Below, piece by piece: positions 15,255 to 60,257 of a stretch of DNA of 64,000 nucleotides (the stretch's first letter is position 1; every line of letters starts with the position of its first letter). Source of the stretch: Candidatus Hydrogenedens sp. GTDB lineage: Bacteria > Hydrogenedentota > Hydrogenedentia > Hydrogenedentales > CAITNO01. A model generated the notes under the pieces. It ran no database searches and had not been told where the DNA came from. It worked only from the letters and a program-made list of their open reading frames with translations. A program made the position numbers and the translations under genes. Location of the stretch: assembly GCA_012522755.1 (NCBI GenBank), contig JAAYJV010000075.1, positions 2,276 to 66,275 of the forward strand, written 5' to 3'.

Positions 15255-15279
15255 TGCCAATGTGGAAATTGGCGTTCCC
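15255..15279 (+). repeat. Conserved hairpin motif P
   Basis: The 25-mer is identical to 1733-1757. Confidence 0.8.
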
Positions 15280-36982: not shown

Positions 36983-37069
36983 TGGTGCCGGGAGAGGGAA
37001 TCGAACCCTCATGGTATTGCTACCGCCGGATTTTGAATCCGGTGCGTCTGCCGATTTCGCCATCCCGGC
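36983..37069 (-). tRNA. tRNA-Leu (CAA)
   Basis: 87 nt. Acceptor GCCGGGA/TCCCGGC, anticodon stem CCGGA/TCCGG with loop TTCAAAA, a long variable arm, T-loop TTCGATT, encoded CCA. Confidence 0.9.
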
Positions 37070-37110
37070 GCAGGCGCTATTCTAGCAAGGAAAGCCGTTT
37101 AAATACAAGA

Positions 37111-37345
37111 GAATTGAACCACGGAGAATTGGACCACGGAACACACTGAACACACGGAAAAAGACTTTTGAAGATGGATAGTGGATTGAAGGATTAAGCA
37201 CAGAGGAGAAAGTTTCTTTTAATTGTTTTATTTTGCTTTTGTTTGGGTTGATTAATATGGTTGATGACATGAAAGAGATACGCAGGTAATATTATTCACT
37301 GGATTAAGACCTCAGAAGAAATTGACCTGGTTCAATTTCTTGAAT
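37111..37345. repeat. Family B TIR element, copy R1 (short variant)
   Basis: A full left TIR (GAATTGAACCACGGAGAATTGGACCACGGAACACACTGAACACACGGAAAAAG) and conserved core, an internal deletion, and a truncated right end (ATTGACCTGGTTCAATTTC). Confidence 0.8.
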
Positions 37346-37350
37346 ATCTT

Positions 37351-39465
37351 CTACCGTGATAATTTGATAAAGGGGCTGGCATGTCCTGAAGATGTTATCG
37401 TCAATGAGTCCCGACTGCGCGTAGCCGCCACGAAAAGCAGTGAACGTTCCCGCACGTTGTGTTCTTGTTGTGCCACAGGATCGTCGTCAATCCCTTTTCG
37501 CTGATAGGGGATTACACCTTCGTTTACTCCGGCGAGAATGACACAGGGAAACTCAAGCCCTTTCACCCGATGCATCGTCGCCAGACGTACACCAGGCTCG
37601 GAGCCATCGCTGTCCTTGTCCAGAATGGCCGTATTGAACCCAGCCTCCTGCAATACCGGCTGATATTCTGTTTTCAGCATACGCGCATTACGGGCGGCCA
37701 CACAGATATCTTCCTCAGCGCGTCCGTGACTCAGCAGTTCCCGACAATGCTGCACCAGAAAGTCCTTCTCCTCATGCAGGGAATGAAAGAAATGGATATC
37801 CGGTTCCGGCCCGTTAAAGAGCGAGGTATAACCTGCCTGATCATCGATCCCGCCATCCAGATCATCCACATCAATGCCGTGCAACAAGGCCAATGCCCAG
37901 TTCTTGATCTGCTCTGTAGTCCTGTAATTGATCCGGAGCTTGTGCGACCGTCCCCGGATATTGATATCACAGCGTCCCAGCACTACCGACGGCCCATAAA
38001 TACGCTGGTGTGCATCGCCGACAATAAACAGATCATTGGGGTTTTCCGGAACCAGGGCCCGGATGAGCCGCCATTCCTCTTCAAAAAAGTCCTGCGCCTC
38101 ATCCACCACCACAGCCCGATAGGGCAGCCGCGACTTGCCTTCCAGATACAAGCGGGTCTGACGGATCACATCACTCCATTCCACTTTCCCCAGTTCCTTC
38201 AAGGCATCACGATACTGTTCAAAGACCTCCCACAATGCGGCACGATCTTTTCTGGATAAGGTTTTTCCCCGCCCGACACGCCGTACCTTGAGATAGTCCT
38301 GTCGCGTCTGCAGATCATTATTCTGAACGACTTTTTCCCATTCATCCCGCAAAAAGTGGAGACTCCATTCGATTTGGCCCGTATAACCGACAGCCCTGTT
38401 CCAACATCCGGCCCTGTCATCATCTGTCGCAATCTGAAAGGAGAAGCCCTGCATCTTCATGAATTTCACGGCCCAGTCATGCAAATGTACCACTTCGATT
38501 CTCTTGAACTCATCGCCACAGAGATTCTTCAGATTCTGTTTCACATCCTTTGCCAGGTTCTTGGTAAAGGTAGTCACCAGAATACGATCCGTACTCTCCG
38601 TAAATACTTCCCGTACAAGATAGCGGGCCCGATGCATGGCCACCACCGTTTTACCTGTTCCCGCTCCACCCGTCACCTTTGCGGGTCCATTGAACCGTTT
38701 CTCCACCATCCGTTTTTGCGCCGGGTGCAGAAAAACACGCCATTTTTCCAGGGGCGCACTGAGAATGGCTGTCAGATCATGCTGCGAATTGATGGTAACA
38801 AAACGTCTTTCCGAGTCGGGATGTTTCAACGCCGCCGTAAAGTCATTTGTATTGACAGCTGCAACCTTGGCCGTACCCGCAGTTACCTCCCGAACCTCTT
38901 CCGCCGTGAAACCCTCAGCCAGCCATCTCAAAGCTTCAGCTGATTCTTCAGGCAAATGCTTCTCCAGCTCATACAAAGCGTTCCGGTTTTTCAATGCACG
39001 TACAGAAGGCATCAGCACGGCGGGCACCCCCACAGACGCCAGGTCCCGATCACTCACATGAGTAAAGAGTGCTTCCGCTGTTTCCGATACAGACTCTTCC
39101 TTCCGAGCCTCAGGCATCTGCTCAGCCGCGTTGACATTCACCACTTGCAGCGCACCCGTCGTTGGATTTACATCAAAGACACGTTCACCGGCCCATTCCA
39201 TGGCCTCATCATGATGATCCACCCACAAAAGGATATAGACATTCCCCCGTTCCGGATGCAATACAATACCCCGGTAATCGCGGCTGATCCGCACGGTGCG
39301 TATCTTCTCATCCCGCACAGCATGGATCTTCTCGTAATTGATACCCGACGAAGTCGGATTCTCACGGAAGCGCTCCATAAATTCGCGTACCCGTCTTTGC
39401 TGCGACCTGGGTATGCGCGAAAAGGCATTCAGAAAATCACTGGATATGGCAACAGTAGGTTTCAT
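37351..39465 (-). CDS. UvrD/Rep-type SF1 helicase with an N-terminal RelE/ParE-like domain
   Basis: 704 aa. Walker A GGAGTGKT (nt 38641-38680), VVVDEAQDF, and C-terminal MHRVKGLEFPCVIL and LLFVAATRSRD. The first 95 aa (RISRDYRGIVLHPERGNVYILLWVDHHDEAMEWA) look like a RelE/ParE toxin fold. Confidence 0.75.
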   Translation of the reverse strand: MKPTVAISSDFLNAFSRIPRSQQRRVREFMERFRENPTSSGINYEKIHAVRDEKIRTVRISRDYRGIVLHPERGNVYILLWVDHHDEAMEWAGERVFDVNPTTGALQVVNVNAAEQMPEARKEESVSETAEALFTHVSDRDLASVGVPAVLMPSVRALKNRNALYELEKHLPEESAEALRWLAEGFTAEEVREVTAGTAKVAAVNTNDFTAALKHPDSERRFVTINSQHDLTAILSAPLEKWRVFLHPAQKRMVEKRFNGPAKVTGGAGTGKTVVAMHRARYLVREVFTESTDRILVTTFTKNLAKDVKQNLKNLCGDEFKRIEVVHLHDWAVKFMKMQGFSFQIATDDDRAGCWNRAVGYTGQIEWSLHFLRDEWEKVVQNNDLQTRQDYLKVRRVGRGKTLSRKDRAALWEVFEQYRDALKELGKVEWSDVIRQTRLYLEGKSRLPYRAVVVDEAQDFFEEEWRLIRALVPENPNDLFIVGDAHQRIYGPSVVLGRCDINIRGRSHKLRINYRTTEQIKNWALALLHGIDVDDLDGGIDDQAGYTSLFNGPEPDIHFFHSLHEEKDFLVQHCRELLSHGRAEEDICVAARNARMLKTEYQPVLQEAGFNTAILDKDSDGSEPGVRLATMHRVKGLEFPCVILAGVNEGVIPYQRKGIDDDPVAQQEHNVRERSLLFVAATRSRDSLTITSSGHASPFIKLSR

Positions 39466-39614
39466 AAGATATTTCTCTCACAGAAGGCGGCCCTGTCCTG
39501 TCCGATCGGCCGTCCCATTGTTTTTAAAAGTCTTTTGAATTAAGTACAACCAGTTTATCATGAAAAAGAGCCTGTCCCGGAAAGAGTGAAAAAACACGGC
39601 ACACTCCTTCAGGT

Positions 39615-42600
39615 TTATGACAAAGCATCAAGAATCTCTGTTGTTCTGTCCGACCTGCCCACCAGAAACACCAGCCACTCCTGTTCTTCAAAAGCCTCCA
39701 CAAATTCCTCCTGATCTTCCGTAAGCACAGCTACCCGCCCATCCATCCAGGCCAACTCCGCTTCGGCACAAATCCGACCGTTGGCACCGGCCAACTCAAA
39801 GCCTATCTCAGGCGGTGCTTTGCCAGCCGCCGCACAGCTCCTCAACAGTTCGTGAACCAGCGGATCCGACAACTCCAGCGCCTCGGTCCACACCTCCGAC
39901 AGTTCTCCGCCAGACTCCGGCAAGGACGGATCGGGAAGGGGCGCAGCTACCACGCCGATTTCTCTTTCTTCCACCAGTGCACGACTCACCCACTGGAAGC
40001 CCGGCAGAAACTGCAAGAGATTGGCCGTACCCAGCATGCACCGCCAGATCTCTTTGTAATTTTCTTTTTGTCTGGCAAAGCGATCATCTTCTATTCGCAG
40101 AAGGGCTTGAATCTCCTCCCACCGGAAGACGGCGGCCGCTTTCGCATCACAGGAAACCAGCAAAGCAAGCAGGTTCATCTCAAAGAGCCCGGCCAGAGGG
40201 CCCAGCATCCCCTTCACAGGATCCGCCTCATGCCAGTCCGCAACCCTTTGCGACAGCATTGCCTCGTAACAGGCCTCCACCTGCTGTTTATCCCGGCAGC
40301 TTGTCAAGGCACTCAAAGTCAGCGCCGCTATGTTCCGTCCCCAGTGCAGGCCATCCGGATTCATGAGATATTCCAACAGAAGTTGTACCCCTGTCGTTTC
40401 AACCATCATGCCATCAAAGATACCATCGGCTTCCACAATCTTTCTGGCAACATTCTTCCGGACAGCCAGATTGGAGAAAAAAGTGACGGGCCTGCCCGCC
40501 TCATCCTTTTGCTTCTGTTCCGAAAACTCCCTGATATCATCCCAGCAGAGTGACCACACCCGAAAACGGCCGGAACGCAAAATGGACATGCGCTTGCGGA
40601 TATCATCGGCAATGCGCGCCTTTTCCTCTTCAGGCATGACATGATAACGGAATCCATCGAGAAACACAGCCACAGGAAACAGCCCCGCCTCTTCTCTGGC
40701 CGGCCAGAACACGAAGTCCGGCCTGGAAGAAAGCGCTACTCCCTGGGCATCCGTAAGCGATACCTGCGGCTCAAGAATCCATTCCCGCCCTCCGAGGGTC
40801 ACACGATGACAGGGCTTGCCCTGACGCAGATACCGTGTCCACTTATACTGCACTTCTTTAAAATGCTCCGCCAGAATATGAATGAACCGCCCTTCCAGTT
40901 CGCTCTCAACAAAATTATCCGGCAGTTCAATGTTCTCAAGCGTCTGAACCTCTTCCAGCTCGTCCCAGTGCTCAAGAATCTTTTCCAGCATTTCAATACC
41001 CAGTTCCCGGGAAATATTCTTCAGAGAATGCTGGCCCTGATAAGCATACAAACAGCGGTAACAGCCCTTCGCCCCTTCGCGCTGGCGACATTCACAGCTT
41101 TTCAGGGTATTCCACGCCTCAACCAGCAGGCTCTTGAACCCTTCAGGCTTATGCACAAATTCTTTCAGATATCCCGTTCCGCCGGGCACCTTGTCATACA
41201 GCACCAGAAAATGTTTGGACTCCCCATCGCCGCCCAGTCCCGGCACGGGCTGCTCACGAACCAGCAGATGCAGGGGATTGCCCTTGAACTTCTTCTTCAG
41301 CCCCAATTCCAGGCAGGCCTTGAAAGTCGCAAGCTTCTCCTCCGCCTCCAGAATGGATACAGGCAGTAAAATACGGATGGCCTCCGATTCCAGCTGTCTG
41401 TAAAGATAGACCTTCACCCAGGGATCTTCCGATTTGCGACCTTCCCACCGGCACCAATACCGGTGTTTCGGATCTTCATTCTTCTTCTTACGTACCACCC
41501 CGCAATAATGACAGAGTACAAAGCCATCTTCAGATACGGGACTCCCCGCCACCTGCATCATTTTATCGCGGCCGCTGCTTACTCCGAAATTCACCTCACG
41601 AAGTGTCACCTCTTTCAGATACTCAAAACCAAAAGGAAGACTCCGGATCGTATAGCCCCTGTCCCAGTTCTCCTCCTGCACATCAAAGAAATCAGAAAGG
41701 GTGTAATACTCTTCTTCCCGCTCATCTTTCTCATCGCCGCTCCGGCTCCTGTGATCCGGAACACGGGCCGACACACGCCGTAAAGGAAGGGTCATATGCT
41801 TCTGTCCGTGATCACTCCAGTTTTCACTGCCGCATTTCGGACACATGCTCTTCCCCTTATCCTCAATGAGCGTCTCCACATAGTGGCATTTGTCACAAAA
41901 ACGCCATTCCTTCAAAAGATATTCGCCGCCCACCTCCGTTGCCACCTGATCCACAACCACCTTGCGCGCCTCCGCATAGAAAGTGTTGAAGGGTGCCAGC
42001 TCGCGTATGGCCATACCCGCCCCGCGGATATACTCATGGCTTTCCATCTCCGGCTCACCTTCCGGGCCCTGTACTCCGTATATCTCGGAATACAGTTTCA
42101 CCCCTGTCTCCGGAAAAGCGTAATTGGGAATCAACCCTTCATCCGTAAAGAGGTTCAGCGGATATTTTTCACGGAGTTCTTTCATGGTGCTGTACAGCAT
42201 GGAACGCTCCATTTTGAGATCCCGCAGTCGTTTCTTCTCATCCTCCACCGATGTCGGATCCTCTTCAACCTGTTTGATCGCACTGAGCACACGAGCCATC
42301 TGCTGCTGGAGCCGCTTCAGATCGGCCTCTTCCTTTTCCAGACAACTGATAAGCTGCTGCTCATAAAGCTCCGACTTCGCATAGTCCCGGAGCCGCTCCC
42401 GGTTCGGTTCTGTCACCACCTCATCAAAATAACTCAAAAAAAGATCACACAGGGCAAGTCCATGTTCTTTCGCATACTTCAGAAAGGAAAGGGGATACCC
42501 GCCCCTGCGCCACCCCGCAAGCATGAAGCCCACCTGTGCGGGCATCACGGCCTGACGATCCTCCCGCGCCCAGCTGTCCAGGCAAAAAGCCAGAAACTGA

Positions 42601-45600
42601 CGTTTCAGCATCTCCGGTGCATCCAGATAACAACCCGGCGGATTCACGCTTCCCCCGATCATCTCAAATGGATCTTCAAAGAAAAAAAGATCATGCGGCT
42701 TCATATTGGCAAGAGCCAGTACAAGCGCATTCCCCGTCTTCCGGCCGCCCCGGCCGATGCGCTGCAGATAATTCGTAGCCGTAGGCGGGATGGAGCAGAC
42801 CATGACCGACGACAGATCTCCCACATCAATACCCATTTCAAGCGTTGGCGTACAGGCAAGCAGATTGGGAGCATCAGCCACTTTCCCCGTCTTGAACAGA
42901 TCTTCCACCTTCTCACGGCGCGCCCGGTTCAGAATACTCGTATGCTCCTGGCTGAAGATGCGGGCAACCTGGCCACGACGGTAAAATTTCACATAGAAAG
43001 AATCTCTTCCTTCCTCATCAGCCTGATAAAGATCCTCCGATAACCAACCCAGACAGGGCATCCCCTCCCAGAAGCGAAGATCGTCAGCCGCAACAGTCAA
43101 GGCGTGATCCATCCCGGAACCGCGCAAGAAGGCCGTATGTCTGGTGATCAGATAAGCATCCGGATTGATGGCATAAACCTCGTCCTTCGTCTTCGGGATA
43201 AGGGTCAGCACACCCACCTTCGCCAAAACAGCCACAGCATGTCTGTACAGCGCATTCACGTCACCAGCTGTATCAGGAATCTGCAAAGAGCGATGGACCC
43301 AGTTGGAATGCCAATTGGCACTGCCTCCGCCGAAGCGCAAAAGAGGGTCAAACACTGTCTCGCCCAAACCCAGAGAAAGAAAACGGGGGAGTCGGCTTTC
43401 AGAACTGAAAGGCGACATGAGAGGCTCATTCTTCTTCGTCAGGAAATACCTGTTCCCCTGATTCTGGCCATAGCGCTTCAACAGCGGATCATACACGGCT
43501 CCCCGTTGACGGGCCCGGGTCAGCCAGCCCAGCAGGAAATAACGGAGCCGCTCACGGCTGATGTCTGCAAGATTCGCCTCATGGATACGCAGCGCCTCCT
43601 CCAGCGCTTCCGCCGCCTCATCCAGAAGCGCCGGATCCAGGCAGACCGTGGAACACCCCACCTTCTCAAGACTCCGGCCCGTGCGACAGTTGAGCCCGAA
43701 CTCCATGCTGATCTCCCAGCGGAGCCGCTTCATGAATCTCTTCAAAAATTTCTTGTCCGGTTTCCTGTCCGGCCCCGTGATAAACGCCGTATATTCCGGC
43801 ATGGGCGCCAGATCAGGCGGCAAAAAGGTGGCGATGAGCTTTTTCCAGTCGCCATCCATCCTGATCAGCCAATAATCCACCAGTTTGTCACCGAAATCTT
43901 TCAGAGGCATCGCCCCGGACTCCTCTTTCTCAAGAAGGGTCTGTAATGCCGTACGAAGATTGAAACGAAAAGTACGTGCCGCAAAAAAGCCCGACCGATG
44001 ACTCGCATCCTGTACGGAATCCGTAAAGGCAAGCATCTTCTTGTCCCTGTTGAAAGGACTGATATACAGATGGCTCACAGCCACAGACGAAAGACTCGCC
44101 GCCTGAGAACCCACCACAGACAAGGCATGTTCGCTCTCACAGCGCGGACACTGCTGCATGTCCCGCGGAAACTGTCCCTGGCTCATCCGCCTGTGCGCTG
44201 TCACAGCCACTCCCGGCCCCCCGCATTGCTGACACACAGGATTGTGGCTCAGTTCCAGACAGCACGAACATAAAAAATCCTTCGTACCCGTCAGGGCATC
44301 CCCTTTTTCATGAGGAAAGAGATAACAAGTTCTGGCGCCCCGGTCAAAAAATTCCCTGTAAATTTCCCGCGGATCTTCGCTCACGCGACTGTCCGCCTTC
44401 CGTTTGAAAGTCAGCCAGCCCGTATGCCCGCAGTCACGACAATAGACCATGGGCAAGCCTGTGATCTCCGAGTTCAAAGGCACCTCATCGCGCCAGAAAA
44501 ACGCCGGCTCCGGAGAGATCCGGCGCATGAGCCGCCTCACCTCCCGTACCCACAGCTGAACCTGACAGGCCAGGAAAGGCGCCACAAAGCCGTCAAAATC
44601 CTTTTTCGATTCGTTGATAATGCTCAGAAAAGACTGGAGCAACGCATTCTGTTTCTCTACGGAAAAAGTTTCAAAGACAGGGTCCCACGCCGCAATTCGC
44701 TTACGCCATTCGCCCCATTCGGTCACACTGTTTTCCAGATTCGTCAGAATCGTGCGAAGAAAGCTGTGCTCACTCAGAACCCGGCCCCGCTCCAGAGGGC
44801 TCAGCGTCGGATCCTGAAACCACAAGCCGCATTGACGTGACACATAGTCCTCAATACTTTCCTCCAGCCCCGGAAGCAGCTCGTCAACGCTCTTCACCTC
44901 CGGAAATTTGTTGTCATCCAGCGAAGGCGCATCCAGATAAACCGACATTTCCTCACGCTCTTCGCTGATCACAGCCGCCAGACCGAAGCGCTCCCCGAAA
45001 AGACGCTCCGCAAAGGCCACCAGATCGCCCTTGGCCTGCGAAGCATCACCCGCCAGCGTCGCACTCGTACCCACACAACAAAGCCCTCCGGGCTCAATGC
45101 CGAGCTTCGCCTTCAAACGCCGGATCAGACAGGCCACATCACTGCCCTGCGCTCCGTCATAACTGTGAAGCTCATCCAGCACAAGATAACGTAAGCTCTT
45201 CCCGCTTGTATACTGCCAGATCTTCTGATCCTCCGGGCGGATCAACAGATAATCCAGCATCTTGTAATTGGTGAGCAGAATATCGGGAGGTTGATTGCGC
45301 TGGGTATCACGGTCCGTAATCACATGATCAGGACCCATCGTCGTATGACGGGCCACATCACCCTCACGTTCGCCCACATACATGCCCACACGCACTTTCC
45401 CCTGCAGGCGTTTGTCACCCCAGATCACCTCCGCAAAACGTTTCGCCTGGTCCGAAGCCAGAGCATTCATGGGATAAAGAATCACCGCCTTCACACCCGG
45501 CTGACGGATCGCACCATTTGCCATACGGTAACAATGATCCAATAAGGGATAGAGAAAACACTCCGTCTTACCCGAGCCCGTGCCACTGGTCACCACCGTC

Positions 45601-45890: not shown

Positions 45891-45903
45891 GAAACAACCT
45901 CTT

Positions 45904-46407
45904 TAAACCACGGAAGAGTTGGACCACGGAACACACTGAACACACGGAAGAAATTGGACCACGGAACACACTGAACACACGGGAAAAGACTTTTGAAGAT
46001 GGATAGTAGATTGAAGGATTAAGCACAGAGGAAAAGATTTCATTTAACTTGTTTTTTTGTTTTTGTTTGGGTTGATCAATAAAGTTGATGACATGATGAA
46101 GATGTAAAGATAATAGCATTTACTTGAGGAAAAGAAAAAAGAAAAGAAAGAAATATAAAGTCTCTGTTTCCCGTGTATTTACCTCTTATTGTTTTATGCT
46201 TATATACGGGTTGACTAATATAGTTGATGATATGAAAGAGATATGCGGGTAATAATATTCACTGGATTAAAACAAAAAACAAAAAAGAAATATAAAGCCT
46301 TTGTTTCCTGTGTATTTACTTCTTATTTTTTTTATGCCTTTATTTTCTTCTTTCCGTGTGTTCCGTGATTGACCTGGTCCAATTCTCTTCATCCGTGGTT
46401 CAATTTT
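45904..46407. repeat. Family B TIR element, copy R2 (full length, about 0.5 kb)
   Basis: It lies between the giant helicase start (45890) and the methyltransferase stop (46389). The left TIR is duplicated. The AT-rich core has two internal direct-repeat pairs. The right TIR overlaps the last codons of the methyltransferase. Confidence 0.85.
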
Positions 46408-49400
46408 TTAAATCTTCTATAAGCTTCCCTCATATCCTTTTCACGGTCGTTCTTCTTGAAGGGAGGCACATATACCCGTTCCATCCGTGGTTCCATTTTA
46501 GGGTCTTCCCAGCGGATACCCACACTCCTCTCACCTCCCGGCAACACCACCTCGCCCAACAAGGCCCCATCCCCACGGTACCCGCTCCGCTTCAAAGGCT
46601 CACGAATATCCACCTCCATCTGCTCCGCAAGCTTCAATACCGCCCCAGGAACCAGCCGCCCTAAACGATCATAGCGGTTGTTTTGTTCATAACCTTGCAG
46701 CACAGAAAACTGAACCCGGTAAATCGTAATCAATTCCTCCTCCGTCAGATCCAATGCCAGAGCAGCCAGAGCATCCAGCTCCACCAATGCCTGACGTCGC
46801 TCCAGATCTGTGCGTAAAGCACTCTCCCAAGTCCAGGGCGTAGGCATCAAGGCATTCCAAAGGTCAGCGTAATGAGAGGTGAGGCAGGTCAATTTCAAAG
46901 CACGGGTTACAATTTCCTGATTCAGCGTTTCAGTTGATGGTAACGGGAGTTGCACAAAAGTATCTATGAAAAGATCGCTCTTGCCAGTGGTCTTAATAAA
47001 AAAATCATAGACCAGAGAGTGCAACAAGCCTTCCACCAGACATAGGGTAATATAGTCGTCAAAAACGACGGATAAGACAGTGTTGATGTGTGCAGCTCCT
47101 GGTGGACAAATGGTGGAGATCAATGTCCTTTCACCTGTAGTGTCACACATCCTCCGATGAACGTGTCGGAAAAACTCCGTTACGGCTTTCTCTTTCCAGT
47201 GGGGCGTCTGCTGCTTATACTCCTCAGGGGAACAAGCAGGCAGATAATTCGTTCGAGGCAAATAGTCAGGATCTATGACCGTGAGATCAATGGAGGTATA
47301 ATCAAGACCGTGCTTACAACCTTCATTGGGCGTTTTAGCAAAGGGGGTTCCCACAAAGAAATGAGGACCTGACAGTACCCAGTCCCTGACGTCTTTCAGC
47401 TGCTGCGTTTCCCTGCGGATAATGCCATCCCGTTGGGCATAAGTTTCATCAAACATAACCGTAGAAAAGAACAGATCGTCTAAATCACTCAGACGCCGAT
47501 GTTGGTGGGCTATTTTTTTCAGAACCTGTATAATTTCTTCACTGTGAATAACAGGAAGGCGGGCTTCCAGAGGAGGTGTTCCAGGGGAATCATAGAGAGA
47601 AGCCATGAGCTTCAGCCTGTCTTTATCGATTGTCAGGAGGCGGTGTCTGTGAGGTCGTAATTCCCATTGATTGTTTTCATTCTTATACCCCGGTACATTC
47701 CCCTCTCCATCGTGTTGCATGGAGCCGTCAATGGTGAGAGGATGGAATAGGTTCGACATGTGAAGAAAAGAAATGGGTTTCCCTATTTTATTTTCATATA
47801 TATTTATGCTGTAATGTCTTGTATGACTTATATCAAATAGAATAAGCTCATTGATAAATTGAAAGTGCGCTCTCAGGCGGATATAAAGAGCCTTTCGTAA
47901 ACGCCCTCCCCTGGCGTCGTCATAAACGCCTTCAGGATGAACTAGGCCTATAACTCCTCCTTCGGCTGCGATTTCCCAAGATCGGGTAATGAAACATTTG
48001 TATAGATTGGTTTGAATTTTTTCGAGAAGTGGGTAATTTTGTCGGGCATTGAGAAAAGCTTTGGTGGCCGTTTGTCCCACAAATTCAGAGCAGTATTCTT
48101 TGAGTCGTACTTCCTGAGTCAGATATTTGTGTCTTTGTCGGGCCATGGCGTCAGCTGAGAGTTTTCTGAGGGCAAAGAAAGGCTCAAATTCGGCGAGAAG
48201 GCCTCCTTCATTCCATCCAACCTTGATCCACGGTGGATTTCCGAGGATGAGATCGAAGCCTCCCTTGTCAGCGAAGACTTCCGCGAATTGGAGTTCCCAA
48301 TGAAGGAAGTTTCGTTGTTTTGCAATTTCCTGGACGAGGCCGAGGCGTGGCACATCTTTGCAGAGAGTATCCACATTGACTCTGCCGAATTTTTTTACAA
48401 AGGCCACATGGTCGGCACTGAGAGCCTCTTCCTGCTCCAGACCCATGAAAAGCGATTCCGCATCTCCTCCTGTGACGGTTCCTTTGAGGATGAGCTCCAC
48501 CTCCAGGAGAAAGCTGTCCCGGGTGGGTAGGAGCTCGCTCTGATCCAGAGGCCAGAACCAGAGGGCGCACCAGTAGTCCATGATGAGTTTGAGACGGCGG
48601 AAGGCTGTATAGGGCCGCTGCAGTTCCGCGGCGATCCTGTCCTGTTCCTCATAAAGGGGAGTGGGACTTTGGCGGTGGGGCTGTCCCCAGAGGCGTGGAC
48701 TTTTGGTGGTTTTTGCTACAGCTTCCCGTCTTTCCCGGATGACCTGTTGCCAGAGCTCATCAATGGCGGCACTGAGCTCCAGGAGCTTGTCCGTGTCATA
48801 CTGGTCGTAGGGCTGGCAGAAAGCTTTGCGCCAGGCTGTTATTCCTTTCACTGCGTCGGGCATGAGCTCCCGCATGGCTTTATTCTTGTCAAAGGCGGCC
48901 ATGTCATCATCGGCCACGAGGAAGTGGTATACGCCCTGACGGGGTCTTTCCAGCCATTGGGGCCCCAGGGCGAGGGGGAGGGGGCTGAGACTGAGCCAGT
49001 TGGTTTTTTTGCTTTTGTCGCGCAGATCGGCGGCATCAAAGATCTGACGGCGGGCACCGACGAGGCTGTTTCCCGTGGCTAGGCGCAGGCCGAACCAGGG
49101 ACACTGGCTGCCCCGATGGATGGTATTGAGCCAGAGAGAGGTGCGGGCCAGCTCTGTGGCGATGGGGTTGAGGTCCACGCCATAACAGTTGTGTTCCGCC
49201 AGAAAGGCCTTGACGCGCTGCCGTTCTTCGGTATAGTCGGAAGGGGGGATGAGCTCCCCCGTCTCGGCCTGTTTTTTTTCCAGATAGGCCTGGGCCAACT
49301 GGTTCACACCTTCGTTGATGAAGGCGGCGGAGCCCATGGCGGGTTCGCAGAGGCGCAGCTGGAGGATTTCATCGGCTGTCTTGTCTTTGAGGAGTTCTTT

Positions 49401-51104
49401 GAGGCTGTACTTGACGACGGACTGGGTGAGACATTCGGGAGTATAGTAGGAGGCGGAGCTTTCCCGGTCTCTTCCGGCGAGGCGGAAGATGAAACTGCCT
49501 TTTTCGTATTTCTTCCGCTGTGTTGCTCCGGGGACATCGCCTTCCACGGCTTCCCGGACAAATTCTTCTTCCTTGTAATCGCTGATCCGTGATTCAGGAA
49601 CGAACCAGGCCTGATCCGTTTCGTCGCCGGCCTTCTGGTCGGCGGCCTTCATTTCGTAGAGAGTTTCCTGAGCGAAGAAGCCCGTGTAGGAGAGGACTCC
49701 TTCATAGACGGCACCGAGCTGGTTGATGCCGAGCTGGGCATAGCTGATGCGACCTCTGTCGCGTCGGCCGCCCCTTCTTGTGCCGCCCACCCTGGAGAGG
49801 GAGAGGAGTTGGATGACCTCTTGAAGGATGCTGTTGCGCAGACGCACGGCACTGAGGCGGGGGGTGCGTTTGAGGTCAAAGAGCGGGCTGTTGAGTCCCC
49901 GGAGTGTGAAGCCCCGGTCTATATATTCCGCGACTTCCTCTTCCCGGGCCAGGGTACTTTCCATCTCTGTCTGGAGCGGGTTGTGACCGTCGTTGATGAG
50001 CGTGAACAGTTTGCGCAGGCTTTCGTCGAAGAAATAACCATTTTGCGCTTCCGGCGTGGTGAGGGGAGCCAGCTCCAGATCGCGGAGGGTTTCCAGACTG
50101 TAGCCGAGGCGGTACTCATCGCTTTTCATGGGCGCCACATCGAGCTCGCCGCCCCGGGCTTCGGCATAGAAAAGAAAGAGAAGCCGGTACAGATAGAGGA
50201 GTGATTCTTCCGTCAGTGCCCGTGCCAGTGCCTCATCGCTGAAGACTGCTTTCTTGCCGATGTTCCGCTGATACCACACATATTCATTGCCCAGCAGTTC
50301 CACGGCACGGCGTATGCCATATTGCAGATCGCTGGAAACACTGAAGGCGTGTTTGTGGGAGTTCTCATCGAGGCTGTCATGGAGGGGGAGAGCCTCATCG
50401 GGGTTGATGGCATCACGGCTGAGGAGAAGGGCCGCCGCACGGAGGGTATCTCTGCTGCGACGGCCGAAGAGTTCGTCCAGATCGAAGAGCATGTATTTGC
50501 CCTGACCCCATTTGTGGCGGTCAATGAGATAAATCTCACTTCCTGCGAAGAGGATGAGCCAGCGGGGCTTCAACTCTTTTTGGAAGATGGCGGAAAAAAG
50601 ATTTTCCCAGTTCCCTTGAGCCAGGGAAAAGTCCGCCAGCTCAGAAGAGGTCGGTGGGTTCTGACAGGGAAGAAGGCCCCGTTCCAAAGTGGCGGTGTTG
50701 TCCTCGTCGCGCCGCGTGGGGAAGGGTGCCTCCAGCAGCCAGAGCCAGGGCTCGCCAGCCCGCTGATAGGTGGCGAGGACGGGGATGAGACTCTGGTCAT
50801 CAAGCAGTTCATAGCGCCCGCTCTCGTATTCATAGCCCAGTGCTTCCAGAAGTGCGATGTTGACGGGGCGTGCTTCAAAAAAATTATCTTCCACACGCGT
50901 GGTCTCTTCTGCACGGGCCTTGGCTTTGAAATAAAGCTGGCCACAGGCTGAGAAGGCTTTGTCGGGCGGTATGCACCCTTTCTCTTCCTCTGCAGCGAGC
51001 CATCGGTCTGCGAGTTCTTTCGTGTCTTTTTCAAACAGGGCGTCCAGATAATAGTCACCGTAAAACTCGTTGACGTTGCTGATACCGGTGAGATCCAGGG
51101 ACAT
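46389..51104 (-). CDS. large N6-adenine DNA methyltransferase (gamma class, Eco57I/PglX/DrmMI-like)
   Basis: 1571 aa. SYYTPEC (nt about 49434-49452), LCEPAMGSAAF (motif I, nt about 49321-49360) and LGNPPWIKVGW (motif IV NPPW, nt about 48229-48243). RBS GAGG lies 8 nt upstream. Confidence 0.85.
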   Translation of the reverse strand: MSLDLTGISNVNEFYGDYYLDALFEKDTKELADRWLAAEEEKGCIPPDKAFSACGQLYFKAKARAEETTRVEDNFFEARPVNIALLEALGYEYESGRYELLDDQSLIPVLATYQRAGEPWLWLLEAPFPTRRDEDNTATLERGLLPCQNPPTSSELADFSLAQGNWENLFSAIFQKELKPRWLILFAGSEIYLIDRHKWGQGKYMLFDLDELFGRRSRDTLRAAALLLSRDAINPDEALPLHDSLDENSHKHAFSVSSDLQYGIRRAVELLGNEYVWYQRNIGKKAVFSDEALARALTEESLLYLYRLLFLFYAEARGGELDVAPMKSDEYRLGYSLETLRDLELAPLTTPEAQNGYFFDESLRKLFTLINDGHNPLQTEMESTLAREEEVAEYIDRGFTLRGLNSPLFDLKRTPRLSAVRLRNSILQEVIQLLSLSRVGGTRRGGRRDRGRISYAQLGINQLGAVYEGVLSYTGFFAQETLYEMKAADQKAGDETDQAWFVPESRISDYKEEEFVREAVEGDVPGATQRKKYEKGSFIFRLAGRDRESSASYYTPECLTQSVVKYSLKELLKDKTADEILQLRLCEPAMGSAAFINEGVNQLAQAYLEKKQAETGELIPPSDYTEERQRVKAFLAEHNCYGVDLNPIATELARTSLWLNTIHRGSQCPWFGLRLATGNSLVGARRQIFDAADLRDKSKKTNWLSLSPLPLALGPQWLERPRQGVYHFLVADDDMAAFDKNKAMRELMPDAVKGITAWRKAFCQPYDQYDTDKLLELSAAIDELWQQVIRERREAVAKTTKSPRLWGQPHRQSPTPLYEEQDRIAAELQRPYTAFRRLKLIMDYWCALWFWPLDQSELLPTRDSFLLEVELILKGTVTGGDAESLFMGLEQEEALSADHVAFVKKFGRVNVDTLCKDVPRLGLVQEIAKQRNFLHWELQFAEVFADKGGFDLILGNPPWIKVGWNEGGLLAEFEPFFALRKLSADAMARQRHKYLTQEVRLKEYCSEFVGQTATKAFLNARQNYPLLEKIQTNLYKCFITRSWEIAAEGGVIGLVHPEGVYDDARGGRLRKALYIRLRAHFQFINELILFDISHTRHYSINIYENKIGKPISFLHMSNLFHPLTIDGSMQHDGEGNVPGYKNENNQWELRPHRHRLLTIDKDRLKLMASLYDSPGTPPLEARLPVIHSEEIIQVLKKIAHQHRRLSDLDDLFFSTVMFDETYAQRDGIIRRETQQLKDVRDWVLSGPHFFVGTPFAKTPNEGCKHGLDYTSIDLTVIDPDYLPRTNYLPACSPEEYKQQTPHWKEKAVTEFFRHVHRRMCDTTGERTLISTICPPGAAHINTVLSVVFDDYITLCLVEGLLHSLVYDFFIKTTGKSDLFIDTFVQLPLPSTETLNQEIVTRALKLTCLTSHYADLWNALMPTPWTWESALRTDLERRQALVELDALAALALDLTEEELITIYRVQFSVLQGYEQNNRYDRLGRLVPGAVLKLAEQMEVDIREPLKRSGYRGDGALLGEVVLPGGERSVGIRWEDPKMEPRMERVYVPPFKKNDREKDMREAYRRFKKLNHG

Positions 51105-51127
51105 AAGATCAACCTCATTTATTAGAA

Positions 51128-51631
51128 TATAACCACGGAGAATAGGACCGCAGAATTCAGGTCACACACGGAAGAAATTGGACCACGGAACACACGGAAC
51201 ACACGGAAAAAGATTTTTGAAGATGGATAGTAGATTGAAGGGTTAAGCACAGAGGAGAAGACTTCTTTTGACTTGTTTTTTTTGCTTTTGTTTGGGTTGA
51301 TCAATAAAGTTGGTGACATGATGAAGATGTAAAGATAATAGCATTTACTTGAGGAAAAGAAAAAAGACAAAGAAAAGAAAGAAATATAAAGCCTCTGTTT
51401 CCCGTGTATTTACCTCTTATTGTTTTATGCTTCTATACGGGTTGATTAATATGCTTGATGACATGAAAGAGTTACGCAGGGAATATTATTCACTGGATTA
51501 AAACAAAAAAAGAAAAAGAAATATAAAGCCTCAGCTTCCTGTGTATTTACCTCTTATTGTTTTATGCCTTCAAACTCTTTTTCCGTGTGTTCCGTGTGTT
51601 CCGTGGTCCAATTCTCCGTGGTTCAATTCTC
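51128..51631. repeat. Family B TIR element, copy R3 (full length)
   Basis: 51177-51212 is perfectly complementary (36 nt) to 51577-51612. The core is collinear with R2 and R5. Confidence 0.9.
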
Positions 51632-51632
51632 T

Positions 51633-54500
51633 TCATTGTGTGCCTATAAATAATGCAGTCAGTTTCAAATACGGTCTTTCCACCACTTCAAGACTGTCGC
51701 GGAGCCATTCTTTGCGGATTTTGCTTTGAGCTTCCACCCGATTCTCTTCCTTCCGGAGCCGCTCGGCTATATCGCGGCGCAATCTTCCCGTGTCGCCTCC
51801 ATACATGAACCTGTCCAGCTCTATCTTCTCCATAGAACGGCGCCGCCAGCGATCGAAGCGTTTGTTGTCTTCCTGGAGCCGTTCCTCCAGTTCGCGGATG
51901 CGACGGCCCCGGAGTTGAGCCAGATGTTCCAGTGCTTTGTCCACTACCTCCTGTCGCTGCTCCTGCAGGGTTTCAACCGCTTCTGTATCATAGTCCCTGT
52001 TGGGCAGGCCCTGTAGAAAGCCGGATGTATCCAGAAATTCTTTGAGAGGCTGGATTCCCAGAAAACGCTTGCTCTGATAGCGGATGACGAACCAATCCAC
52101 AATGACAGGCTGGCTGCGCCTGTTGGAAAGAATGCCCTGGAAAAGCCAGGCGCTGTTGTCGGGCGAGAGCTTGCCGGTGCAGATGACGGGAGCTTCGTGT
52201 CGTTGAAAGCGGCAGATGACCTTATCCAGCAGCCATTGCATGGCCGGATGCAGTTCCCAGAGGAGCTGTGCATCGGGCCAGGTGGACAGTTCTTCTTTGG
52301 AAAGACGGCGCGCATCGGCTATGGCATCCTGAACACGCTGTCGATCGCTGGTGAGGAAGAGTTTGTTGTTTTTTGGCCAGGCTTCTCTGGGCACGAAGTG
52401 AAAGCGCCGCTGCAGGTCTTCGGGCATGGCCATTTCCACAGAGGGATGATCAGGATAGAAATCGGGATAAGGCAGGTCGCTGTTTTCTTCACAAAGTTCG
52501 TCGAAGGCGGCCCGAAGAAAGCTGAGGTCGTTTTCATATAGAGAGAGGGTGATCCCTGTATCTTCCGGGGGTGGCGGCGCGGCAAGTTCGCTGTCCAGAA
52601 GAAGAGAAAGAATGCCCAGGTCTTCGGGTTCCTCCGGGTAGATGTCTTCAGGGTTGCCGCCGAAATCCAGCTCGCCCTGAAGCACTTCCGCTTCTTCCTC
52701 GGCACTGTATATCCCGGTGAGGGTCGTGGCGTCACCAATATTTTTGTAGACGTATCTTTCCTTTTCGACAAGTACTTTGAGAATGTGCATGTCGCCCCGG
52801 AGCGAAGGATCGTCCGTTCTTGTGGTGAGATAAACGATGATGGGATTCTCATTCTGGCCGTAACGGTCGATGCGGCCATTTCGTTGTTCGAGCGTGATGA
52901 GAGACCAGGGGATGTCGAAGTGTACGAGATGATGACAGAAGTGATGGAGGTTCACTCCTTCGGAGGCCACGTCTGTGGCAAGAAGTATCCGGACAGGGGC
53001 ATCTTTTTTGCCGAAGTCTTCCACGATGCTCATCTGCTCCGTATCGGAAAGGGCTGCATGGAAGAGGGTGATCGCCTCATCGCGCAGATCATAGTGGCTG
53101 GCCAGTGCATGGCGCAGCATTTTCAGGGTACAGATTCTTTCGGAAAAGAGCAGTACCCGGGGACTGTCTTTCAGCCCTGTCCAGCCGATGGAGTCGAGCC
53201 ATTTGAAAAGAGCCTTCACTTTTCCGCAGGGCTGTTCCACGACCTGTTGCAGTTCGTTGTAGAGCATGTCGAGAATCTGCCAGTCACTTTCCAGATCGCT
53301 CCTGTTCACAGGTGCATCATTAAGCTTTTCATCAATAGTCTTCAGGCGATTTTCCACCGTTTCCAGACAGGCATGAGGACTCGATAAAAAGGCTTTGAAC
53401 AGGGTGGTACGGAAAAGGATGTCCCGACCACGCTTGTTTTTTTTGTTGAGTGTATGGAACTGGAGACCCTTGAGGCGCTTCAGTATACCTTCTTCCCGGT
53501 CCGTGGTGAAGACGGGGAGGGGCATGGCTTCCCGTTCCCTGAAATGTTCGCCCACCTCATGGCTCACGTCTTTTTTGAAACGACGGACAAAGAGACCCTT
53601 GATTTCGTCCCGCGAATAATCCAGAGGGTTGGCAATGGCCGTGGGGTCGAGCATGTTCATGAGATTGGCGAAGCTCTCGGGCTTGCCGTTGTGGGGAGTG
53701 GCGGAAGTGAGGATGAGGGAATCGCAGGTGCGGGCCAGAAGGGATGCCAGACGGTTGCGCTGCGTGTCCGCATTGGCTACATGGTGGCATTCATCAATGA
53801 CAATGACATCCCATTTGCAATCTTCCAGAAAAGTGCGGTAACGGCCATCATTTTTCAAGGTGTCTATGGATATAATGGCGCGGTTGAAGTAGTAAAAAGG
53901 ATTCTTGTTCGCCGGGATGCGCGCGCGGACACGCTGCAGACCGATGGAATCGAGACGGACGAGGGGGATACTGAAACGGGTCCATAATTCCTGCTGAAAC
54001 TGGGTGAGCAGTGATTTGAGGACCACAACCAGAATGCGATCGCCACGGCCCCGCTTGATCAGTTCGGAGAGGAGAACGCCCGCTTCCAGAGTCTTGCCGA
54101 TGCCTACGCCGTCGGCAATGAGTATACGTGGACGGAGGGCCGACAATGCCATGGATGCCGGGGTAAGCTGATAGGGCGCAGGGTTCATGGCCGCCTGGTG
54201 ACCCAGATAAATGCGCTCGTCCGCAGGAGGACTGCGACGAAGAAGACTCTCCAGAAAAAGGCGGGAACGACGGTATTGCGGGGAGTCATCTTCAACCAGG
54301 TCAGTCTTTTCAGGACGCATTTCCTCGACCTGGTCGAGGACGGTGAGAAAAGTGGCTTCGTGGTCTCGTACCAGCTCTGACATGCCCACTACCTGAAGAG
54401 CGGAACCCCCTGTGTTCACAGAGTGACAGGCCTTAACAAGCCATTCCTCTCCGCGTACCACTACGCGTGCACCAGGCGCAAAAACTCCCGTCTGTGCCAT
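51633..54500 (-). CDS. SNF2-family helicase (DrmD-like)
   Basis: ADGVGIGKTLEAG (nt 54091-54116), VIVIDECHHVAN (nt 53781-53815), TSATPHNGK, LLATDVASEGVNL and EQRNGRIDRYGQ. I prefer the ATG at 54500, 8 nt after GAGG, over the tracked GTG at 54509. Confidence 0.85.
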   Translation of the reverse strand: MAQTGVFAPGARVVVRGEEWLVKACHSVNTGGSALQVVGMSELVRDHEATFLTVLDQVEEMRPEKTDLVEDDSPQYRRSRLFLESLLRRSPPADERIYLGHQAAMNPAPYQLTPASMALSALRPRILIADGVGIGKTLEAGVLLSELIKRGRGDRILVVVLKSLLTQFQQELWTRFSIPLVRLDSIGLQRVRARIPANKNPFYYFNRAIISIDTLKNDGRYRTFLEDCKWDVIVIDECHHVANADTQRNRLASLLARTCDSLILTSATPHNGKPESFANLMNMLDPTAIANPLDYSRDEIKGLFVRRFKKDVSHEVGEHFREREAMPLPVFTTDREEGILKRLKGLQFHTLNKKNKRGRDILFRTTLFKAFLSSPHACLETVENRLKTIDEKLNDAPVNRSDLESDWQILDMLYNELQQVVEQPCGKVKALFKWLDSIGWTGLKDSPRVLLFSERICTLKMLRHALASHYDLRDEAITLFHAALSDTEQMSIVEDFGKKDAPVRILLATDVASEGVNLHHFCHHLVHFDIPWSLITLEQRNGRIDRYGQNENPIIVYLTTRTDDPSLRGDMHILKVLVEKERYVYKNIGDATTLTGIYSAEEEAEVLQGELDFGGNPEDIYPEEPEDLGILSLLLDSELAAPPPPEDTGITLSLYENDLSFLRAAFDELCEENSDLPYPDFYPDHPSVEMAMPEDLQRRFHFVPREAWPKNNKLFLTSDRQRVQDAIADARRLSKEELSTWPDAQLLWELHPAMQWLLDKVICRFQRHEAPVICTGKLSPDNSAWLFQGILSNRRSQPVIVDWFVIRYQSKRFLGIQPLKEFLDTSGFLQGLPNRDYDTEAVETLQEQRQEVVDKALEHLAQLRGRRIRELEERLQEDNKRFDRWRRRSMEKIELDRFMYGGDTGRLRRDIAERLRKEENRVEAQSKIRKEWLRDSLEVVERPYLKLTALFIGTQ

Positions 54501-54577
54501 GAATTTCACCTCGGTGTATCATTGCAAACAAAAAACATCATAACCTCAAATATCCTAGCATACCACAGCAGGAAGAA

Positions 54578-54901
54578 CAACCACGGAGAATTGGACCACG
54601 GAACACACTGAACACACGGAAAAAGACTTTTGAAGATGGATACTGGATTGAAGGATTAAGCACAGAGGAGAAGATTTCTTTTAACGTGTTTTATTTTGCT
54701 TTTGTTTGGGTTGATCAATAAAGTTGATGACATGATGAAGATGTAAAGATAATAGCATTTACTTGAGGAAAAGAAAAAAAGAAGAAATATAAAGCCTTTG
54801 TTTCCTGTGTATCTACTTCTTTTTTTTTATGCCTTTATTTTCTTCTTTCCGTGTGTTCCGTGATTGACCTGGTCCAATTCTCTTCATCCGTGGTCCAATT
54901 C
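54578..54901. repeat. Family B TIR element, copy R4 (single-unit variant, about 0.32 kb)
   Basis: It has both TIRs but only one copy of each internal direct repeat. It ends at the GxxExxY stop codon. Confidence 0.85.
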
Positions 54902-55276
54902 TTACAATACAATCCGTTCTATCTCCACTCCGGGATAATGTCCAAAATTTACCAGCAACCCCAATTTCAATTCCGTAACCTTCAAATAATTCATCACCTG
55001 AGCACGGTGCTCAGCTGTCAGCACCTTCACCGCTTTCAGTTCAACAAGAATCTTGTCAAAGCAAAGCAGATCCGGCACAAACTCATGCTTCAACAGTATC
55101 CCTTTATATCTCAGCGGATACCGCTTCTGTGTATGAAAAGGGATGTCTCTCGTTGCCAATTCTTGTTCAAGACAGCTCTGATACACCATCTCAACATAAC
55201 CATGGCCCAATTCCTGGTACACCTCATATATGGCCCCCCGAAGAAGGTAACTCTCTTCCTTGTACAGCAACGACAT
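54902..55276 (-). CDS. GxxExxY protein (PD-(D/E)xK nuclease superfamily, TIGR04256-like)
   Basis: 125 aa from MSLLYKEESYLLRGAIYEVYQELG. It has the GxxExxY motif, then PDLLCFDKILVELK. RBS AAGGAGG lies upstream. The tracked longer start at 55354 reads into repeat R5. Confidence 0.8.
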   Translation of the reverse strand: MSLLYKEESYLLRGAIYEVYQELGHGYVEMVYQSCLEQELATRDIPFHTQKRYPLRYKGILLKHEFVPDLLCFDKILVELKAVKVLTAEHRAQVMNYLKVTELKLGLLVNFGHYPGVEIERIVL

Positions 55277-55296
55277 GACTATAACCTCCTTAATTA

Positions 55297-55814
55297 AAAC
55301 CACGGAAGAAATCGAACCACGAAAAAATTGAACCACGGAACACACAGAACACACGGAAAAAGACTTTTGAAGATGGATAGTAGATTGAAGGGTTAAGCAC
55401 AGAGGAAAAGATTTCTTTTAACTTGTTTTTTTTGTTTTTATTTGGGTTGATCAATAAAGTTGGTGACATGATGAAGATGTAAAGATAATAGCATTTACTT
55501 GAGGAAAAGAAAAAAAGAAAAAAGAAATATAAAGCCTCTGTTTCCTGTGTATTTACCTCTTATTTTTTTATGCTTATATACGGGTTGATTAATATAGTTG
55601 ATGATATGAAAAAGATATGCGGGTAATAATATTCACTGGATTAAACAAAAAACAAAAAAGAAAAAAGAAATATAAAGCCTTTGTTTCCTGTGTATTTACT
55701 TCTTATTTTTTTATGCCTTTATTTTCTTCTTTCCGTGTGTTCCGTGATTTCCGTGGTCCAATTCTTCGTGGTTCAATTCCTGTTTTCTTTCTCTTTCCTT
55801 CCGTGGTCTAATTG
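55297..55814. repeat. Family B TIR element, copy R5 (full length)
   Basis: Collinear with R2 and R3 over about 0.5 kb. It marks the right edge of the island. Confidence 0.85.
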
Positions 55815-60081: not shown

Positions 60082-60209
60082 TGCATGTCCTGATCCGCGG
60101 GAACAGCGGACAAAATAAGGGGATCCGATTACCGCTTCAGAAAAGCACTTGTATCAGTGCTTTTCCTGAGCAAATACTCTTTCCTATCGAGAAAAAAACA
60201 GGAATCAGG

Positions 60210-60239
60210 TTGATTCTTCCTGCCCTTTTTTGGTACAGT
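60210..60239 (+). promoter_or_regulatory. candidate promoter of tRNA-Leu
   Basis: TTGATT (60210-60215), 18-nt spacer ending in TGG, TACAGT (60234-60239). The mature tRNA 5' end is 19 nt downstream. Confidence 0.45.
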
Positions 60240-60257
60240 GTTCACCGTTACTATCAC

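Follow-up and report, generated by a model that had tools for sequence, protein, structure and literature searches.

The 64,000-nucleotide (nt) stretch of a Candidatus Hydrogenedens sp. genome studied here (contig JAAYJV010000075.1; below, the window) carries, within an antiphage defense operon, five copies (R1 to R5) of a noncoding, AT-rich element bounded by terminal inverted repeats (TIRs). The arms of these elements are arrays of a 9-nt unit that recurs in genomes assigned to many phyla and that flanks genes for small nucleases of the GxxExxY family, one of which is bracketed by R5 and R4. We consider it probable that the copies are long-loop, nonautonomous, noncoding members of a REPIN/RAYT-like system built on a PD-(D/E)XK nuclease. 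[quoted passage not shown] Three things are new: arms that are unit arrays found in many phyla, a partner gene of the PD-(D/E)XK type, and a long AT-rich cargo by which a defense operon is divided.

Five collinear copies in the defense operon

A repeat search covering 36 to 57 kb of the window, after which the copies were read and aligned, recovered to within a few bases the five copies that an earlier note on this DNA had reported. Their positions and parts (L-arm and R-arm, left and right arms on the plus strand; A, X, X', and Y, core blocks) are as follows.

37107-37348, minus strand: R1, truncated, separating the stop codon of the UvrD/NERD helicase gene from tRNA-Leu(caa); L-arm 37107-37168, block A 37170-37206, X' 37245-37307, degenerate right arm 37308-37348
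45904-46407, minus strand: R2, full, separating the stop codon of the Type IIG gene from the start codon of the DruE-like gene; L-arm 45904-45993 (in which a 35-nt unit occurs twice), block A 45995-46031, X 46069-46129, Y 46150-46190, X' 46208-46270, Y 46287-46327, R-arm 46346-46407
51124-51633, minus strand: R3, full, separating the stop codon of the DrmD-like gene from the start codon of the Type IIG gene; L-arm 51124-51217, block A 51219-51255, X 51294-51354, Y 51381-51421, X' 51439-51501, Y 51518-51558, R-arm 51572-51633
54572-54901, minus strand: R4, with a single unit, separating the stop codon of the GxxExxY gene from the DrmD-like gene; L-arm 54572-54630, block A 54632-54668, X 54708-54768, Y 54784-54824, R-arm 54841-54901
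55297-55814, minus strand: R5, full, upstream of the GxxExxY gene, in a divergent region facing a gene for a 901-amino-acid (aa) MshEN-domain protein; L-arm 55297-55367, block A 55369-55405, X 55444-55504, Y 55524-55564, X' 55582-55644, Y 55667-55707, R-arm 55725-55814

The alignment bears out the claim that the copies are collinear. On the plus strand, R2, R3, and R5 share the modular order L-arm, block A, X, Y, X', Y, and R-arm, R4 has a single X-Y unit, and R1 retains block A, X', and a right arm that is degenerate. The AT-rich core consists of block A and one or two units of 137 nt. The copies are 242 to 518 bp long, with a GC content of 31 to 36% (versus 54% in adjacent coding sequence), and their pairwise identity is 85 to 90% among R2 to R5 and 69 to 76% for R1. 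All five are confined to 19 kb. The 37-nt block A has five matches in the 64-kb window, each with two mismatches at most and all on the plus strand, where none was expected (100 shuffles), and the arm 13-mer CCACGGAACACAC has 12 matches in the window versus 0.08 expected. Conservation within the core is highest in the X block, where R2 to R5 differ at 1 site in about 65 nt, and reading frames across the copies are interrupted by indels.

The arms are 35 to 62 nt long and are 79 to 98% complementary inside a copy and up to 97% complementary between copies. In R3, complementarity is perfect over 36 nt (51177-51212 against 51577-51612), just as the earlier note had it, and the extended arms are 98% complementary over 42 nt. 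The gene-distal arms of R2 and R4 are 95% identical over 88 nt, and thus the copies are mosaic. Five independent metagenome contigs from anaerobic digesters (ENA/Logan and JGI) reproduce the arrangement at 99.99 to 100% identity, and we therefore conclude that it is not an assembly artifact. These sister contigs all end within the Type IIG gene (49.47 to 49.73 kb; 49465-49730), none of them at the repeats.

The arms are a widespread repeat of 9-nt units

Each arm pair consists of inverted arrays in which a 9-nt unit is repeated; here the unit is CACGGAACA, and its general form is CACGRAAnA. Position frequencies taken from loci encoding GxxExxY proteins give the consensus C-A/g-C-G-A/g-A-A/t-N-A/g with a 9-nt period, and an arm of the family has two or more such units. 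Those in the window read CCACGGA ACA CACGGA ACA CACGGA. The outer end of an arm is mostly AACCAC, with TTAA-CCAC found at 103 of 437 arm ends. When a 596-Gb collection with one genome per species was scanned for the 24-nt arm string ACCACGGAACACACNGAACACACGG, exact matches were found at no fewer than 119 genome loci, whereas an arithmetic estimate for 23 specified bases predicts about 0.02. Among the matches listed, the record titles name Planctomycetota, Verrucomicrobiota, Kiritimatiellia, Cloacimonadota, Chloroflexota, Acidobacteriota, Nitrospirales, Spirochaetaceae, several proteobacterial classes, and two archaeal-labeled metagenome-assembled genomes (MAGs). At these listed genome loci, sharing with the window is confined to the arms (30 to 60 nt), and a partner arm is present for 94 of 138 instances, mostly 12 to 100 nt away, the others being solo. 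The short hairpin is the common form of the family elsewhere. The arm motif and its CACGAAA variant also occur in 33 stretches of predicted viral contigs, some of them in capsid/tail operons.

These results bear on two claims of the earlier note. The TIRs that it described are present as inverted arms, but they are not a local invention: the 9-nt-unit arrays recur exactly in many phyla and on phage contigs, and they habitually flank GxxExxY genes. Similarly, concentration in one operon holds for the AT-rich core but not for the arms, given their genomic and viral distribution.

Arm arrays were found in co-directional, convergent, and divergent intergenic regions, and this spread over all intergenic contexts is the behavior of a DNA repeat of the REP or MITE type. 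A strict sense orientation of solo arms, on which the idea of an RNA leader was based, was rejected because the bias is weak (27 versus 14). Between the two arms of an element, the 6-nt units agree at 96% and the 3-nt spacers at 64%, compared to 85% and 54% for shuffled arm partners. Since the units agree far above the spacers, constraint acts mainly on the unit sequence rather than on perfect pairing, and this pattern points to a sequence-specific factor. A lone arm is unstructured in RNA folding. The arm sequence is not mentioned in the literature searched, and the repeat family is seemingly undescribed.

GxxExxY nuclease genes are flanked by the arms

The GxxExxY protein of the window scores 136 bits against TIGR04256. 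Its AlphaFold model has a minimal PD-(D/E)XK fold (pLDDT, 94) with the PD...ExK residues intact. The nearest structures are of the Cas4/RecB type (best, Cas4, with a template modeling [TM] score of about 0.5). MGME1 and RecE are also among the matches, and Hjc resolvase and tRNA-splicing and homing endonucleases rank lower; all TM-scores are 0.57 or lower, and no sequence match of the protein to any solved structure was found. The family is very large, comprising 23,486 clusters when its members are grouped at 50% identity (E value of ≤1e-3), and the GxxExxY/PDDEXK_3 family has been listed as having no known function and as having undergone multiple interdomain transfers (PMC3424549).

The tie to the arms was assessed at 80 metagenome loci encoding relatives of the window protein (47 to 64% identity), 75 of which were usable, with a strict definition of the arm motif. 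The motif lies upstream of the gene in 45 and downstream in 51 of the 75 loci, versus 48 of 1,415 background windows (3.4%), and a flank-to-flank inverted-repeat score of at least 15 was reached by 38 of the 75 loci and by none of 75 shuffled controls. At nearly all loci, arrays such as AACCACGAAAnnCACGAAAnnCACGAAA stand directly 5' of the start codon, with the reverse complement directly 3' of the stop codon; the unit variants include CACGGAA, CACGAAA, CGCGAAA, CACAGAA, and CATGAAA. The hairpin-gene-hairpin layout of the window recurs in four loci (L143, L154, L162, and L183), and in another (L055) a GxxExxY gene with an internal deletion is enclosed by two arms. Called GxxExxY homologs often carry translated arms as N- or C-terminal extensions (TTEYTE, VFRG, and NHETHQIHE).

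A GxxExxY gene was detected by tblastn or profile hidden Markov model (HMM) within the fetched 2 to 15 kb around the arms at 1 of the 119 listed genome loci and at none of the 33 viral ones, which rules out the proposal that arms always stand beside such a gene. The association runs from the GxxExxY gene to the arms, where it is strong, and is weak in the reverse direction.

GxxExxY genes are mostly co-directional with their neighbors (52 of 59 upstream and 40 of 54 downstream), with gaps of about 100 nt. Restriction-modification components are the commonest neighbor families, and housekeeping operons are represented too. At three loci (L140, L152, and L168), 20 to 55 nt of the upstream flank plus the arm recurs after the gene, and in L090 (853-1602) the hairpin is repeated in tandem, with six copies spaced 145 nt apart; we see in these repeated flanks and tandem hairpins signs of duplicative spread or tandem amplification. 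Five loci (L126, L129, L159, L170, and L204) have a GxxExxY element at the same junction between genes for an ABC-transporter ATPase and an FtsX-type permease, with the arm variant CACGAAA in four and CACGGAA in one, as would result either from long residence or from repeated targeting of the site. Several proteins of 250 to 290 aa (P0277, P0285, P0296, P0297, and others) consist of two tandem GxxExxY domains, i.e., fused duplicates.

The elements are secondary insertions into a compact operon

The island is a DISARM/Druantia-like antiphage operon, and all of its genes are on the minus strand. The genes and the adjacent tRNA gene are as follows.

36983-37069, minus strand: tRNA-Leu(caa), co-directional with the island, after R1
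37351-39465, minus strand: UvrD/NERD-type helicase (GajB-like), 704 aa
39615-45890, minus strand: DruE-like DEAD helicase with MZB (DUF1998) domain, 2,091 aa
46389-51104, minus strand: Type IIG restriction-methyltransferase (DrmMI-like), 1,571 aa
51633-54500, minus strand: DrmD-like SNF2 helicase, 955 aa when started at the ATG at 54500
54902-55276, minus strand: GxxExxY protein, 124 aa (PF13366 PDDEXK_3, TIGR04256), bracketed by R5 and R4

That TIR-bounded, AT-rich, noncoding elements fill nearly all of the intergenic space, as the earlier note observed, is evident from their fit to the genes. In gene orientation, they start 0 to 8 nt past the upstream stop codon. The distance from their end to the next ATG is 16 to 22 nt for R2, R3, and R5 and about 70 nt for R4, and the junctions downstream of the elements keep an intact GAGG/GGAGG ribosome-binding site (RBS). 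The R-arm of R2 contains the Type IIG stop codon (46389-46391), the frame ending in KKLNHG followed by the stop within the arm, so that the last codons of this gene as well as its stop codon are provided by R2; the DruE-like ATG lies 16 nt past the other end of the element. R5 constitutes essentially all of the DNA upstream of the GxxExxY gene. The junction between the UvrD/NERD and DruE-like genes (39466-39614) is without an element.

The closest relatives of the DrmD-like protein (63 to 64% identity) are encoded in compact operons. In one of these (P0125), the SNF2 helicase gene is followed, after a 13-nt gap, by a Type IIG methylase gene and then, after a 6-nt gap, by two small genes and a gene for a 2,079-aa DEAD/MZB helicase. 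In another (L206), the methylase N terminus (IDLTGISNVNEFY; compare MSLDLTGISNVNEFY in the window) begins directly after the helicase stop codon, and the apparent gap of 1.4 kb reflects a miscalled start. As the related operons are compact, we conclude that the elements in the window are secondary insertions between a stop codon and the next RBS. When R2 plus one TTTAAA was removed by hand, an in-frame Type IIG stop codon was obtained that overlaps the DruE-like ATG (ATGA); such a stop/start overlap is typical of translationally coupled junctions. Removal of R3 plus one AATGA left a junction of 10 nt. Both reconstructions are suggestive only, as the flanking repeats are not significant.

One contig from a second digester sample (L122; ENA ERZ941576, k127_390742) joins window positions 51890-51500 to 55573-53934. 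Its order is the 3' end of the DrmD-like gene, an R3/R5 hybrid with one 137-nt unit, the GxxExxY gene, R4, and the 5' end of the DrmD-like gene. Recombination between R3 and R5 that formed a circle or a tandem duplication would produce such a junction; alternatively, the contig is a chimera made in assembly. R3 and R5 match exactly over 75 nt at most, which is under the assembler k of 127. The contig gives a hint that the island is rearranged by way of the copies.

The core, its promoter-like sites, and its predicted RNA structure

The core gave no Rfam match at the gathering threshold or at an E value of ≤1, apart from one chance-level match. It had no matches in the metagenome scan (the collection evidently lacks the source sample) and none in viral contigs, and among 242 fetched loci it was present only on contigs of the same genome. 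A called open reading frame (ORF) of 83 aa within it had only a self-match among 5.8 billion proteins. The possibility that the core is a decayed GxxExxY gene was dismissed on the basis of six-frame HMM scores of 0.1 bits or less, versus 208 for the real gene.

Promoter-like sequences of the form TTGnnn-17/18-TGnTAnAnT precede all four tRNA genes (7746-7835, 21996-22085, 37070-37159, and 60168-60257), and thus the organism uses sigma-70-type promoters with an extended -10 element. The site of tRNA-Leu(caa), TTGTAT-18-TGC TAGAAT, lies between R1 and the tRNA gene. The X block has promoter-like sequences on both strands, namely, TGCTATTAT in the direction of the genes (in R2 to R5) and TTGATG-18-GATAAT in the opposite direction, and a bidirectional promoter in this block is conceivable from these motifs.

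The earlier note had foreseen that each element, if read through, would form a long RNA duplex, and folding agrees. In gene orientation, a terminal stem of about 40 to 60 bp is predicted, which requires both arms on one transcript; the stems predicted for R3 (z = -7.9) and R4 (z = -3.6) measure roughly 50 to 60 bp.

Interpretation and alternatives

We propose that the arm units would serve as sites in cis and the GxxExxY nuclease as the trans-acting factor, in the manner of REPINs and RAYTs, and that the elements would spread without target-site duplication and/or via recombination between copies. In a read-through transcript, the arms are predicted to pair into a 40- to 60-bp stem, a putative substrate for RNase III-type enzymes, and the base of this stem would bring the upstream stop codon beside the downstream RBS. 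A transcript begun inside the core would hold one arm only, itself unstructured, and the X block may act as an internal, possibly bidirectional, promoter.

Several observations count against this proposal. The earlier note recommended a search for target-site duplications and for presence/absence polymorphism; neither was found. The longest direct repeats flanking the five copies, of 4 to 6 nt, are not beyond chance (shuffle P values of 0.13 to 0.94), and no filled/empty polymorphism was seen, empty or inverted sites being absent among the contigs encoding the flanking proteins. The phylum labels are record titles of MAGs, single assignments of which may be wrong. Arms rarely have a GxxExxY gene within 8 kb, and the putative trans role of the nuclease is therefore deduced from flanking alone. 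The structural match is generic for PD-(D/E)XK folds and is uninformative regarding substrate. The AT-rich core is without a relative in any sequence searched and is private to the island. Finally, the promoter-like matches are at chance level, with an estimate of about one TGnTAnnnT per core per strand.

The earlier note likened the elements to MITEs of the Correia/ERIC type, and as a first description this was fair and has real precedents. Small, AT-rich, noncoding, multicopy, TIR-bounded sequences with a very stable predicted RNA fold are what would be expected if they had arisen by deletion from an insertion sequence and were mobilized by a transposase of the DDE type recognizing the TIRs (as with Correia, ERIC, and Chunjie). 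We nevertheless consider such an origin unlikely. No target-site duplication beyond chance was found at any of the five copies, and no transposase was detected in the ORFs scanned (the island genes plus ten larger ORFs of the window). Moreover, the arms are unit arrays common to many phyla, and the gene that they flank elsewhere encodes a 124-aa PD-(D/E)XK protein rather than the transposase of an insertion sequence. Correia elements (CREE) are intergenic, TIR-bounded, and cotranscribed, their TIRs, when paired, are cleaved by RNase III, and they can create promoters (PMC2649163; PMC10969869). The window elements are likewise TIR-bounded and intergenic, and the role as an RNase III substrate is here a predicted one. 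However, Correia elements are 100 to 160 bp long, are restricted to one genus, and duplicate TA, whereas the window elements are 240 to 520 bp long, lack a duplication, and have arms that cross phyla. [quoted passage not shown] By that same partial description, which is the sole basis of the comparison, Chunjie has 21-bp TIRs and 9-bp direct repeats, and the window copies have no direct repeats of this kind.

Host selection offers a different account, which overlaps with a REPIN/RAYT-like origin and which we regard as doubtful though not without plausibility: each element could be a regulatory cassette, retained irrespective of any mobility, that supplies a defense gene with a promoter, insulator, or RNA-processing site. 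The conserved X block, promoter-like on both strands, would fit, as would the position of R5 as essentially the sole upstream DNA of the GxxExxY gene, and once the elements had inserted, the downstream genes would require read-through or new promoters. Related operons nonetheless manage with junctions of 6 to 13 nt, the promoter matches do not exceed chance, and the core is absent from all other sequences searched. The flanking of each gene or gene pair by copies, the mosaic structure of the copies, and the L122 junction (where the exact R3/R5 match is shorter than k) would also be expected if the repeats were portable homology or integron-like sites for the excision, duplication, and shuffling of defense genes. 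This seems very unlikely to us, as no integrase or other recombinase occurs in the ORFs scanned and the outer ends (AATTGAACC...GGTTCAATT) do not match the attC core (GTTCAAT versus GTTRRRY); L122 may be a chimera, and ordinary homologous recombination between any repeats yields the same junction. Least probable of all, to the point that we give it very little weight, is an inverton, in which a recombinase would flip a core promoter between the inverted repeats and make the defense genes phase variable. The AT-rich, promoter-like segments are bounded by inverted repeats upstream of defense genes, with plus-strand sites that face away from them, yet the five copies and the five collinear sister contigs have a single orientation, recombinases are again missing from the scanned ORFs, and elsewhere the arms stand alone or enclose loops of 12 to 40 nt, too short for invertible promoters.

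A wider claim, which we advance tentatively, is that the arms and the GxxExxY nuclease may form a previously undescribed selfish system that is spread across prokaryotes and phage contigs, an analog of REPIN/RAYT with a different nuclease fold. Such a system would colonize gaps between stop codons and RBSs, especially in restriction-modification and defense operons, could carry noncoding cargo, and would here have split a compact DISARM-like operon into recombinable, repeat-bracketed modules.

Relation to known systems and significance

The closest parallel to the REPIN/RAYT-like system proposed here is REPIN/RAYT itself (REP/REPIN and RAYT; Bertels and Rainey, 2011, PMC3116915; PMC3337134). 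In both, short palindrome-forming intergenic repeats occur as singlets and as inverted doublets (here, 94 of 138 instances are paired, among the matches listed), the repeats flank a small nuclease-type gene (RAYT is thought to act on REP repeats), and target-site duplications are lacking. The differences are substantial. RAYTs are Y1/HUH (IS200-like) proteins, whereas the flanked gene here encodes a PD-(D/E)XK protein of PF13366/TIGR04256 and is multicopy in many genomes. Unlike REPINs, which are lineage specific and vertically inherited, the arm is an array of 9-nt units, an identical 24-mer of which is found across MAG-labeled phyla and in viral contigs, and the window copies have a noncoding core of 150 to 400 nt.

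Two other systems share part of this layout. The intervening sequences of 23S rRNA contain a small ORF (for a four-helix-bundle protein, S23p) within long inverted repeats, are transcribed with the host RNA, and are excised at the stem by RNase III, which renders the insertion tolerable. The elements studied here have a similarly selfish-looking small ORF or loop inside long inverted repeats, but they lie between protein genes rather than in rRNA and have a different ORF family and other arm sequences. Free-standing homing endonuclease genes are located between conserved phage genes, and their spread by cleavage of the empty allele has been demonstrated. They resemble the GxxExxY elements as small nuclease genes between co-directional operon genes, including those of phage structural modules, and differ from them in that the arm family has periodic inverted arms and abundant gene-less copies.

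If the REPIN/RAYT-like reading is correct, a very large family annotated as "GxxExxY protein, function unknown" would gain a testable role as the partner of a conserved DNA repeat, and the small nuclease ORFs and hairpins often found wedged in restriction-modification and defense operons would be accounted for. It would be a second, independent instance of the REPIN/RAYT lifestyle, and it would show a tightly coupled defense operon broken into repeat-bracketed modules, which would affect both expression, through long double-stranded RNA stems and perhaps new promoters, and rearrangement, as at the L122 junction. The arms also break metagenome assemblies and yield spurious ORFs and N-terminal extensions (HEKHEK, TEHTEH, and FRVFRG), and for this reason their recognition would improve annotation.

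Further observations in the window and in phage contigs

The GC skew of the plus strand shifts near 46000 to 48000: it is about -0.2 over the UvrD and DruE-like genes and about +0.1 over the Type IIG and DrmD-like genes. As all of these genes share the minus strand, the shift is suggestive of separate histories for the two island halves. The source is an anaerobic-digester bacterium that has polysaccharide-degrading genes.

On predicted phage contigs that carry capsid and tail genes (L230, 5885-5908 and 8058-8081; L241, 927-950, 4523-4546, and 5792-5815; and L242), sense solo arrays fill stop-start gaps of about 40 nt, and in one case the ATG directly abuts the final arm unit (CACGAAATG).

The window contains a second long-loop, low-GC, apparently noncoding element at 14704-15996, with another arm variant (CACCACGAAGTCACGAAG.../...CTTCGTGACTTCGTGGTG), outer repeats GGTGATAGGTGAT/ATCACCTATCACC, and nested inverted repeats (15478-15543 with 15823-15888); no ORF enclosed by it matched a known family. 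Two unpaired arm arrays, of the variants CCACAAAGTCACGAAGAGCACGAAGGTTCACGAAG and AACCGCGAAACACGCAAAAAAAAACGCGAAAAAG, lie at 7858-7945, just upstream of tRNA-Asp. With these additional arrays, the genome has at least three arm variants.

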